64,000 bases of DNA, taken from IMG/VR virus record IMGVR_UViG_2877962823_000010; one strand, written 5' to 3'. The notes below the pieces were generated by a model. That model was not told the origin of the DNA and ran no database searches. It saw only the letters and a program-made list of their open reading frames with translations. The translations under genes were made by a program, and so were the position numbers. Positions 4,987-13,407 of this stretch are shown here, one piece after another. Numbering within the stretch: position 1 is the stretch's first letter; every line of letters begins with the position of its first letter. Origin of the DNA: a virus (lineage: Duplodnaviria > Heunggongvirae > Uroviricota > Caudoviricetes).

Positions 4987-7900
4987 TTAATCCACTCCCA
5001 CTTTTTTGTTGTACTCGCGGTTAAACCGATCCACGGCAATTTTCATATCCCGCTCTACCGATTTCACCATCGCCGACTGTTGCGCCAGACTGAGAGTACT
5101 GTCGGCGTAAATGGCATCACGCTGTTTACGCAAATCCTTCAGTCTCTTCCGGGTATCCTGCATAAGCCCGTTCATCGACAATTTTCCGTTGTTCTCGTCA
5201 ATGAACGCCGTTCTTTCTGCACCGGTCAGACTCTTCAGCTCTGCGTGATACTGCGCAATCTCTGTCATCCGGTCGTACATCTTCTGCTGGTCTGCATACG
5301 GCATCACCTCCCCCGAAATTTTCCCCAGGAAGGGCACCTGCTGTTCCGGTATATCAATACCATTCAGCGATTTCACCGCCGCATCCGTGGTTTTGGAAAT
5401 GAAGCGCCCTGTCCCTCCGGAGATATAGTCAATCCAGAATTTCAGCGATTCCGGTGTGATATCCACCGCGCCGGGACGGTACTGGCTGCCACCTGAGAAC
5501 GCATTCAGCCAGGATGCAAACGCCTTGTACGCTTCTGGCGTTGAACGTCTTCCCAGCTGGCTGTCAGGTTTTGGTGTACCAAACGGCATGTTCTCCTGGT
5601 AAATCTGCGCCCCCATGAAGTTTTCATTCATGGCAAGGTTCGCAAACGGACGCAGAATGGTCGGCGCTGCATTTTTCAGCAATGCCCCGGACAGTGTTTC
5701 CGACGTCTCACTGCCAATCGGGCTGAATGCACCAAGCACACCACCAACAACATTACCGGCAGCACGGGACGCCGTCAGGTCACCCGCCGCCACACCTTCA
5801 GCAGTATGCCCGAGCAGGAAGAAAACGTTGTACCCGTAAGGCAGAGGAATACTCCAGTACTCTCCGGCCTTGCCCCCGAACACCGATTTCATAATGACGA
5901 GGTTACGCTCTTTCACATGAGACGGCACCTTGTCATACCAGTTAACCCCGTCATCATCCTCACCCGCCACGCTGCGGTTAAGCGAGCCAAGCAGATAACC
6001 TGCTCCCACAGCGGCAAGCGCGATTTTCTGCGGAACATTCAGATTCTTCCAGCGAAGGCGCTCCAGTAAAGGTCCCTCACCATTAAGATGTCCGAGCGTT
6101 CTCACCAGATTTGCCGTTCCCTGAATGCTGGCGTTGGCGAACATGTACAGCGAATTCATCAGCGCCCCCTGCTCACCACGACGGTTAAAGTTCACCGTCA
6201 TGTTTTTGGCAAGAGACGCCGCCTGCTGGCGTGACAAACCGGCATCACGGGCGTGCTTATAGGCAGAAAGACGCAGAGCGTTTTCAACCGCACCGTTGGC
6301 ATCCTCGACAAGGTTAAGGAACGAATTCCATGCACCGATACTCTGGCCTTTCCATCCCCCCTTCGCCAGTGAGACAAGGCGATCCATTTCCTTCTGCTGG
6401 CCTTCAAGGTCACCCATGTTAAACCAGCCGGTTTTCCCTCCGTCCTCAACAAACTCTTTCCACACCTTCTGCCACTGTGCACCTTTTCCCGTGAGGGTTT
6501 TACCACGCAGACTGGCGTATACGGCTGACATGGCAGAACGGCTGTCTTTCACCACAGCCAGGGCGGATAAGTTATCCAGCCCTTTCAGTTTACCGTCGCT
6601 CCTTCCCTGCTCCGCCTTCAGGTTCATCACCGCCGTCTGCACGTCACGGATGAAGTTACTGACCAGGAATTCCGGGTTATACGACGTGTTCACCGTTGCC
6701 AGGAAGCGGTTAACTTTCCCCAGCGTACGAACAAAGGCATTGCTGGTTTCCGGTCCCATACTCTTCATCGCACGCATCAGGCGCGGATCATGGAGTTTGA
6801 TGTAGTACGTTTTGCCGTTCTTTTTGGTGGTGAAGTACCGGTCTGCCATCATTGCCATCGGTACAGGGCGTTCGACAACTTCGCGAATGGTTTCACCAGT
6901 TTCCTGGTCCTTGCGCTCTGCAATCGTCCGCATGGTATCCGGTCTGTCATCGGTGAATACCTGCCAGTAATCCTTGTCGGGATTATCCTGCACCAGTTTC
7001 AGGAAGGCGTTACCCACTTCGTTTTTGCGATGGCGGATCAGCGATTCGCTCAGGTCCTGTATCGCCTGAGTGGACGGAGACTGTGCCCGGGATGCACGCC
7101 CCATGGCCTGCCTGCTTTCACGTCCGCCGATGGTGAAGCCCTTACCTGTACGGGGCAGTGACACCACACCGTCAACATCCTGACCTTTCAGGGGAACGTA
7201 GTAACGGTAGGCGTTCTGCCAGGCATCCACCACACCGTTCTCTTCAAGTCCGGCCTCACGGATAAGCTCACGGCGACGGGCCAGCATATCGTCAATAATC
7301 CCTGCCAGACGGTCATACTGTGCCTGTTTGCCACTGTTACGTACACGCTGCATGATTTCCGCCGCTTCCGCGTTGGTCATCCCCGAACCGCCGTCCGGCA
7401 TTTTCGGGTTGATTTTCGCGATATGCGCGTTACGTTCCGGCGCGTGACGGGCGTAGAGGTACTCATCCAGATCGGCCTGCGCAATTTTGTAGTCCGCCAG
7501 TAATTTAGCCAGTGGCTGAACGTAGCGCTCCTTCATCACGTTCAGGTCGTTTTCCGCCTTCCCGTGGAAGAGTTCTTCCGCCATATAAGCGTTGTTACTG
7601 TCGTCCACTTTGCCGCCAGTTTTACGGATATTCTCCTGAACAGCTTTCAGCACCTGGAATTTATCCTGCATCTGGCGCACAAAACGCGATGCAATTGTCT
7701 CTTCCGGTGTCAGACTGCTGGTACGGGAGTAATACGGCCCCTTGCGAATATCTTCAGGATAGAGTATTTTATCCGCAGAGCCGCGATAAGAATGTTCCCC
7801 TTTGGGCAATTGGAGCCCTCTGTGCAGAAGGTTATCGCGGCTTAATTTTTCTCTCCGGTACAACGTTAACCCGGTCATTTCCATACTCTTCAGTTTTTTT

Positions 7901-13407: not shown

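Follow-up and report, generated by a model that had tools for sequence, protein, structure and literature searches.

The 2793-residue polyvalent protein of short-tailed Shiga toxin phages: a probable internal virion carrier with a fixed scaffold and exchangeable cargo

The giant gene that closes the late operon of a short-tailed Shiga toxin (Stx) phage is the subject of this report. The window, the whole stretch of DNA analysed, comprises 64,000 nucleotides and is filed as IMG/VR virus record IMGVR_UViG_2877962823_000010 (Caudoviricetes). It is a piece of Escherichia coli O157:H7 chromosome, not a free phage genome. An uninterrupted open reading frame (ORF) runs on the minus strand from 13407 to 4987 and holds 2806 sense codons and a stop; all features of the gene given below lie on this strand. 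Capsid, tail-fibre and virion-protein genes are located upstream on the late strand, of which the giant gene is the last, and genes of the opposite strand come next. With 8421 bp it accounts for 14.7% of the 57,430-bp prophage unit. Under uniform codon usage, a stop-free run of 2806 codons has a chance probability of about 3e-59. The zinc-binding pattern HExxH occurs exactly twice in the translation, at residue 1297 (AHEWFHSLD) and residue 1564 (HEIIHHAMEH), where the protein composition predicts 0.037 occurrences and two or more would arise with a probability of about 7e-4. An earlier note, made from the letters alone, had described a continuous 2806-aa frame at the end of the late operon, covering about 15% of the phage and containing both motifs together with long low-complexity tracts. 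That description is accurate. The reading frame is intact in 186 phage records from many independent projects (the phage records covering at least 80% of the query). Every record listed covers 100%, and DNA identity is at least 90% in all 186. A sequencing frameshift artefact is thereby excluded, and the note's view of a single long gene holds.

A GC hairpin resembling a terminator overlaps the first 13 codons of the ORF, for which there is no ribosome-binding site. GGAG, a Shine–Dalgarno sequence, stands 5 nt ahead of the ATG at 13368, and the protein family PHROG 616 aligns from ORF residue 14 onwards (residues 14–2806 against positions 1–2793 of 2793). For these reasons the true start is most likely the ATG at 13368. 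The coding sequence would then span 4987–13368 and specify 2793 aa plus a stop, which is the published size of Sp5 ORF80. Residue numbers given here are those of the 2806-aa ORF; 13 must be subtracted for the 2793-aa protein. The hairpin itself (13386–13405) has seven pairs, six of them GC, followed by TTTTTTT, and was returned by a terminator scan as resembling an intrinsic terminator. It separates the stop of the upstream gene (13438) from the ATG at which the giant gene probably starts, and may insulate the giant gene from transcription that is not Q-antiterminated.

The gene is not new. Its DNA shows 100% identity to the counterparts in VT2-Sakai (Sp5) and many Stx1 and Stx2 phages, among them the Stx1 phage of the Morioka strain and PA-series phages, and its product is 97% identical to gp47 of phage phi24B. 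By these matches it is the gene known as Sp5 ORF80, ECs1242, VT2-Sakai ORF71, VT2-Sap73 and phi24B gp47, with a homolog in 933W as well. The RefSeq product name is 'LPD5 domain-containing protein'. Deletion of ORF80 (2,793 aa) in Sp5 leaves normal-looking, DNA-filled heads that do not bind tail-fibre antibody. The gene was judged essential and involved in tail assembly, and a COG1483 AAA+ hit was mentioned (Mondal et al. 2016, PMC5155283). In phi24B, gp47 is abundant in purified virions and is absent both from the ordered density obtained by cryo-electron microscopy and from negative-stain images; it was proposed to be a capsid-packaged ejection protein (bioRxiv 10.64898/2026.04.10.717836). 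According to the supplementary table of that preprint, its spectral count of 10,962 is second only to that of the capsid protein (17,998). The four slices listed first, which precede the peak slice of the 724-aa portal, contain about 62% of the gp47 in-gel counts, and the packaged form is therefore mainly very large. The preprint lists LPD5, LPD1, LPD38 and 'a MuF-C metallopeptidase domain'. Published descriptions of ORF80 and gp47 consist only of these domains or of the COG1483 ATPase hint. Both the gene and its class are thus already present in the literature and in RefSeq, from which the essentiality and the virion presence of the product are taken, and novelty is low. What is added here is the delineation of two peptidase domains, an N4-type N-terminal domain and a plan of fixed ends with a variable middle, together with correction of the published 'MuF-C metallopeptidase' and AAA+ readings. 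Older GenBank records carry many short 'hypothetical proteins' annotated inside or antisense to the giant ORF (19 under the match in AP005153; vb_24B_50c to 52c in phi24B). Since proteomics supports the long frame, these short ORFs are almost certainly spurious.

The N-terminal domain (residues 14–470; 11998–13368) occupies the extreme N-terminus here and in related giants. A search with the N-terminal ~457 residues matched 100 cluster representatives among 1.84 billion proteins, and in all giant proteins (2000–4665 aa) among these 100 the match falls within the first ~250 residues. When a 61-sequence alignment of the domain was compared by HHalign with gp50 of phage N4, the ejected virion RNA polymerase (vRNAP), residues 296–439 of gp50 were matched with a probability of 96.6% and an E-value of 7e-10; reversed and shuffled controls gave E-values of at least 0.1. 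The vRNAP family of PHROGs matches the giant protein at E 0.0057, in the N-terminal domain only. On these profile comparisons the domain is homologous to that of gp50. The N4 domain inserts into nanodiscs and is the proposed inner-membrane anchor of gp50, with a low-complexity linker as tether (PMC13434306). The most hydrophobic segment of the Stx protein, residues 195–213 by hydropathy, lies inside the N-terminal domain, approximately where the alignment offset puts the predicted membrane helices of N4 (224–278). The domain closes with a glycine-zipper segment (residues 421–441, EGAAFGAAMGAPFGAVAGYRG; 12085–12147). Its pattern DPxxGV..EGxxxGxxxGxxxGAxGGxR is kept across the 61 aligned domains; Pfam Gly-zipper matches are weak (E 0.03–0.08). 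The segment is a candidate membrane-inserting or oligomerising helix. It is followed by a hydrophilic low-complexity linker (residues 471–929; 10621–11997) that is rich in E, A, R, G, P and Q and contains 19% hydrophobic residues, against 27% in the whole protein. A hydrophilic spacer of at least 340 aa follows the N-terminal domain in every relative examined. Pfam scans of sub-segments (E <= 10) gave no match in the linker and added nothing for the N-terminal domain.

The first metallopeptidase domain is a predicted CLCA_X-type gluzincin (residues 1113–1465; 9013–10071), to which LPD5 contributes its C-terminal part, together with the HExxH helix and LPD1. Pfam places LPD5 at residues 1064–1213 (E 6.5e-45) and LPD1 at 1374–1453 (E 1e-23), both above gathering thresholds. 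The helical/beta N-terminal part of the LPD5 module (residues 930–1112; 10072–10620) precedes the peptidase. Its start, DFGE..GA.K, is conserved in two alignments, and it is modelled by AlphaFold2 with a predicted local distance difference test score (pLDDT) mostly above 90. The NCBIfam family CLCA_X (NF041907) matches residues 1195–1450 at E 2e-43 over positions 3–245 of 250; the score, 148.6 bits, does not reach the curated cut-off for naming whole proteins, which is 260. CLCA_X, described by Lenart et al. (2013, PMC3650047), is a zincin family of phages and plasmids that profile comparison ties to the CLCA metalloprotease domain. It includes Bbp10 of Bordetella phage BPP-1 and has the HExxH-plus-Asp motif in common with the Stx domain, which differs in being embedded in a 2793-aa protein and fused to the N-terminal part of LPD5. 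Alignment of 55 diverse homologs revealed one conserved unit of ~350 aa, residues 1113–1465. The motif HEWFH (residues 1297–1301; 9505–9519) and D1304 after it are completely conserved, and the residues invariant in 55 of 55 are H1276, E1278, H1297, E1298, H1301, D1304, E1388 and E1395. A His ending strand 2 and an Asp three residues past HExxH constitute the signature of phage-type polyvalent metallopeptidases (Iyer et al. 2017, PMC5512222), and the residue pattern aligned here is that signature. The AlphaFold2 model of residues 925–1705 (pLDDT 84) sets the conserved residues on the elements of a zincin, namely an N-terminal helix, three strands, the HExxH helix and a Glu helix. The HExxH helix is accompanied family-wide by a Glu on a later helix, as a third ligand requires. 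Sequence and model together support a zincin metallopeptidase with predicted activity. A Foldseek search with the multi-domain 925–1705 model gave nothing significant. Searches of PDB chains by sequence returned nothing meaningful, whether the query was the whole protein or a profile of the middle or of the C-terminal alignment, and for this peptidase domain no PDB sequence was hit by profile.

The second, metallopeptidase-like domain (residues 1525–1700; 8308–8835) is the most widely shared domain of the middle region. Its motif, HEIIHH (residues 1564–1569; 8701–8718), can be read as HExxH or as HExxxH. In the family alignment the His and Glu are nearly always present and the second His follows at +4 or +5; the consensus is HE-x3-H, some members have HExxH, and the Stx sequence fits both. 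A downstream helix, 'aEE.lA', with E1620 is conserved. These statements are based on a jackhmmer alignment, as full-length MAFFT alignments of the multi-domain proteins held misaligned, unrelated rows. The modelled topology comprises three strands, the HExxH helix and a later helix bearing E1620. In motif and topology the domain fits the HEXXXH clade of Iyer et al. (PMC5512222), and it is likely to be a zincin-type peptidase.

A MuF_C/PBECR RNase-like domain follows (residues 1735–1870; 7798–8205), with the Pfam MuF_C match at 1763–1852 (E 1.3e-17). The active configuration of PBECR domains is a His within the N-terminal helix plus a Ser or Thr in strand 4 (PMC5512222). H1765 and S1829, conserved in nearly all homologs, match this configuration, their placement on those elements being a prediction. 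The published label 'MuF-C metallopeptidase' is set aside: MuF_C is the RNase-like PBECR domain, not a peptidase. The sequence GLQLP (residues 1865–1869; 7801–7815) at the border with the C-terminal module is conserved across divergent homologs. With a linker conserved to this degree, the junction may, speculatively, be a site of cleavage or processing.

The C-terminal 907 residues (1900–2806; 4990–7710) form the 'LPD38 module', one conserved unit that is mostly alpha-helical with a single beta domain. Pfam detects LPD38 at 2489–2694 (E 7.7e-48, above the gathering threshold), and a scan of residues 1856–2500 (E <= 10) added nothing. Metagenomic proteins match the module at 33–58% identity over 97–100% of its length. 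Some consist of the module alone (880–1040 aa), others carry N-terminal ART, methyltransferase, PBECR1 or InPase domains, and by this pattern the module behaves as a single unit. It was modelled with a pLDDT of 84 and a predicted template modelling score (pTM) of 0.79. A profile search of the PDB gave nothing meaningful and a search with the model gave only generic helical bundles, so that no solved structural relative was found. The translated nucleotide search tblastn recovered the module from Stx phages, ~60-kb Vibrio phages (41% identity), Bcep22-like and Ralstonia phages (27%) and the Bacillus phages Page and Pascal (22%). A homolog is also encoded by Methanosarcina virus MetMV (MK170447.1, 40102–42492; 28% identity over 92% of the query, E 1e-77), and this archaeal-virus match would give the module an unexpectedly wide host range. 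In one metagenomic contig (L004, 1–13129) the module is a separate 1042-aa gene that ends the late operon, and a different giant gene, of 3616 aa, lies a few genes upstream; from gene order this looks like a 'split' version of the carrier plan outlined below. Two 'solo' LPD38 proteins were found in small degraded or satellite-like elements, and their genomic context was uninformative.

The domain order was surveyed across the family by scanning 63 giant representatives with hidden Markov models built here; because some of them could be truncated, an absence is to be taken loosely. Of the 63, 60 have the N-terminal domain, always first, and 59 have peptidase 2. The C-terminal module, found in 30, always ends the protein, with peptidase 2 upstream of it in 29 of these 30. 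The remaining parts vary: peptidase 1 with LPD5 is present in 19 of 63 and MuF_C in 17 of 63. Relatives carry ddrB-ParB, methyltransferase, LPD39, Strawberry-notch (Sno)-type helicase or ART domains, and a close Salmonella relative has a phosphoribosyltransferase (PRTase) inserted at a domain junction. Among these giants the plan is constant, consisting of an N-terminal domain, a hydrophilic linker, variable cargo, the second peptidase and the C-terminal module.

The giant protein is best read as an internal virion 'large polyvalent protein' of the short-tailed Stx phages, built on this carrier plan, a reading to which we assign a probability of about 0.7. Matches of LPD5, LPD1, MuF_C and LPD38 well above Pfam gathering thresholds bear out the proposal of the earlier note that the protein is polyvalent. 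Its further suggestion, an ejected protein of a short-tailed phage, is strengthened by the abundance of the 97%-identical gp47 in virions outside the ordered density, and by the N4-like N-terminal domain. Ejection, membrane insertion, autoprocessing and enzyme targets are what we infer for the following mechanism. (i) The protein would be a late product, enclosed in the capsid mainly in the form of a very large polypeptide. (ii) On infection it would be threaded through the portal and tail channel, its loosely folded domains like beads on a string. (iii) The N-terminal domain, with its hydrophobic helix, glycine zipper and N4 homology, may anchor at the envelope or inner membrane and, with neighbouring small virion proteins, extend the short tail into a conduit. 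(iv) The hydrophilic linker would tether the remainder of the protein. (v) The exchangeable cargo, here the CLCA_X-type zinc peptidase and the PBECR RNase-like domain, would act early on host or phage targets. (vi) Peptidase 2, which nearly all relatives have immediately ahead of the C-terminal module, is the leading candidate for freeing cargo from the scaffold. (vii) The 907-aa LPD38 module could be the conserved structural core behind essentiality, serving in incorporation at the portal or tail and in stabilization of the tail.

Three known systems resemble this arrangement. N4 gp50 (Schitoviridae, 3500 aa, ejected; PMC13434306) has the same order as the Stx giant: a membrane-associated N-terminal domain, a low-complexity linker, cargo, an HExxH domain and, at the C-terminus, a large alpha-helical domain that has no structural relatives. 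Neither protein is visible in virion reconstructions. The Stx protein differs in having no RNA polymerase family in Pfam, NCBIfam or PHROGs. Of its HExxH domains, peptidase 2 is only weakly similar to the N4 C1 domain (HHalign probability 23%), and the comparison of peptidase 1 with C1 was negative. By these tests the protein is not an N4-type virion RNA polymerase: no polymerase domain was found and no similarity to the C2 domain was detected. The N-terminal domain is common to both. A second parallel is the 'DarB-like' virion protein of 4500–4600 aa of Bcep22 and JC1 (Lessievirus), again encoded by a giant gene that ends a podovirus morphogenesis module, in phages with portal, capsid and head-closure proteins related to those of 933W. 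The Bcep22-like giant has LPD38 near its C-terminus and has been seen in virions by mass spectrometry (PMC9144972). The C-terminal module of the Bcep22 and Ralstonia proteins is 27% identical to that of the Stx protein, whereas the cargo differs: a lytic transglycosylase (LT), a methylase, an SNF2/HepA-type helicase and LPD3 in the Bcep22 type, and the CLCA_X peptidase with LPD5 and PBECR in Stx phages. Third, the large polyvalent proteins of Iyer, Burroughs, Anand, de Souza and Aravind (2017, PMC5512222) have four signature domain families in common with the Stx giant. Their phage-type metallopeptidase signature and its HEXXXH variant both occur here, as does the location among late virion genes. 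Iyer et al. described the domains as a network of interchangeable effectors. In the Stx subfamily, by contrast, two parts keep a fixed position, namely the N-terminal domain and the last 900 aa, and the protein is essential, which points to a structural carrier role beyond effector delivery.

Several observations weigh against the carrier model or parts of it. For N4 the likeness has a limit: the C-terminal module shows no similarity to the C2 domain (HHalign probability 0.5%), so the argument for a shared plan rests on the N-terminal domain and the layout. A classical transmembrane helix was sought in the protein and not found, the highest 19-residue Kyte–Doolittle mean being 1.38. Domain 2 has only sub-threshold Pfam matches and no significant match to a curated family, and at least one relative has Gln in place of the first His. 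The zincin-like character suggested in the earlier note for both motifs is thus well founded for the first, by the CLCA_X match, the invariant ligands and the zincin order of secondary structure, and no more than likely for the second, despite its conserved motif, helix and topology. As the virion form is mostly very large, processing of the bulk of the protein before ejection is not supported. Presence in the virion is documented; departure from the capsid and entry into the cell are proposed. The deletion phenotype hints at an additional role in assembly that the carrier model explains loosely. Loss of tail-fibre labelling is not known for ejection-protein mutants of P22 or N4.

Among other explanations the best survivor, although unlikely, is a conduit that breaches the cell wall, in which the ejected metallopeptidases would open a path across the periplasm by cutting the peptide cross-links of peptidoglycan. 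A wall-breaching role was suggested by the phi24B authors (bioRxiv 10.64898/2026.04.10.717836). The Pfam scans recognize no lysozyme or transglycosylase domain in the Stx protein, where the Bcep22-like homolog has an N-terminal LT-like domain, so some other activity would have to deal with the wall. Against this, the peptidase assigned in the preprint is MuF-C, which is the RNase-like PBECR domain. The closest folds (MtfA, lethal factor and Pro-Pro endopeptidases) belong to protein-cleaving endo- or aminopeptidases that are not known cell-wall enzymes, and Iyer et al. (PMC5512222) argue that the metallopeptidases of polyvalent proteins are processing enzymes. Less probable still is a tail-assembly factor that is not ejected, but builds or holds the tail, possibly with energy consumption, and stays with the particle. 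In its favour are the full heads that fail to bind tail-fibre antibody and the COG1483 (AAA+) hit noted by Mondal et al. (both PMC5155283). The ATPase reading was rejected: the 2806 residues contain no Walker A motif ([AG]xxxxGK[ST]), and Pfam, NCBIfam and PHROGs contain no matching ATPase family. Despite its abundance, gp47 is also outside the resolved structure of portal, adaptor, nozzle and fibre, its domain families are those of injected polyvalent proteins, and it shares a homologous N-terminal domain with an ejected protein. A pure anti-defence effector carrier like P1 DarB, injected only against restriction or CRISPR and without structural role, is very improbable: relatives do carry methyltransferase, helicase and ParB-nuclease cargo, but the PHROG 'DarB-like antirestriction' match is confined to residues 2364–2694 in the LPD38 region, Pfam finds neither methyltransferase nor helicase in the Stx protein, and without the gene no infectious particles are made in a permissive K-12 host (PMC5155283). 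The LPD38-bearing giant of phage PTXU04 is essential too.

The neighbouring genes are relevant to the carrier model, in which small virion proteins would assist the giant one. Immediately upstream on the minus strand, the genes at 13438–14703, 14975–15421 and 15424–16155 correspond to phi24B gp48, gp50 and gp51, on the strength of matching positions and similar lengths in VT2-Sakai and phi24B. Each of the three phi24B products was detected in virions by mass spectrometry (bioRxiv 10.64898/2026.04.10.717836), and the 421-aa product of the upstream gene (Sp5 ORF79) is essential for the tail (PMC5155283). By analogy with gp51 and gp52 of N4, the three may be partner ejection proteins. The N4 proteins are recognizable homologs of T7-type proteins, whereas no Pfam family was found for the three Stx neighbours.

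The prophage shows further features. Positions 1–522 are host flank (a 'general stress protein' gene). The segment 523–6570 is repeated exactly at 57953–64000, and this offset of 57,430 bp indicates a second prophage copy in tandem after the first. Of 5426 complete E. coli genomes, only 5 contain the junction of integrase and right end. A 1,310-bp IS3-family insertion sequence with an rve-type transposase is present twice, at 20497–21806 and 38892–40201. The copy at 20497–21806 interrupts a late gene (VT2-Sap63, 567 aa, in VT2-Sakai, where it is intact), leaving pieces at 23027..21804 (407 aa) and 20484..20011 (157 aa). VT2-Sap63 corresponds in size and position to the phi24B 'nozzle' gp57, and a prophage copy with this gene split probably cannot build a tail unaided.

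The carrier model can be extended, tentatively and with more doubt than belief, to a common origin. The Stx giant, the giants of Bcep22, Ralstonia and Vibrio phages and the N4 vRNAP could be variants of one ancient 'ejected cargo carrier', in which an N-terminal domain for membrane anchoring is joined through a disordered tether to swappable cargo, a release peptidase and a large helical C-terminal core; in Stx phages this core would also hold the tail. If this is true, the host would be reprogrammed or disarmed during the earliest minutes of infection by the released zinc peptidase and PBECR RNase, and the host range and lysogenization of toxin-converting phages could be influenced by the released cargo.

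Short-tailed Stx phages spread Shiga toxin genes among E. coli, and their largest gene is essential. In its product a fixed scaffold can now be told apart from exchangeable cargo: the N4-like N-terminal domain, peptidase 2 and the 907-aa C-terminal module belong to the scaffold, the CLCA_X peptidase and the PBECR RNase-like domain to the cargo. This map turns a '2793-aa hypothetical protein' into constructs that can be tested. The plan recurs in Vibrio, Ralstonia, Burkholderia and Bacillus phages and in a Methanosarcina virus, so that lessons from the Stx protein may apply to a wide class of podovirus internal proteins.

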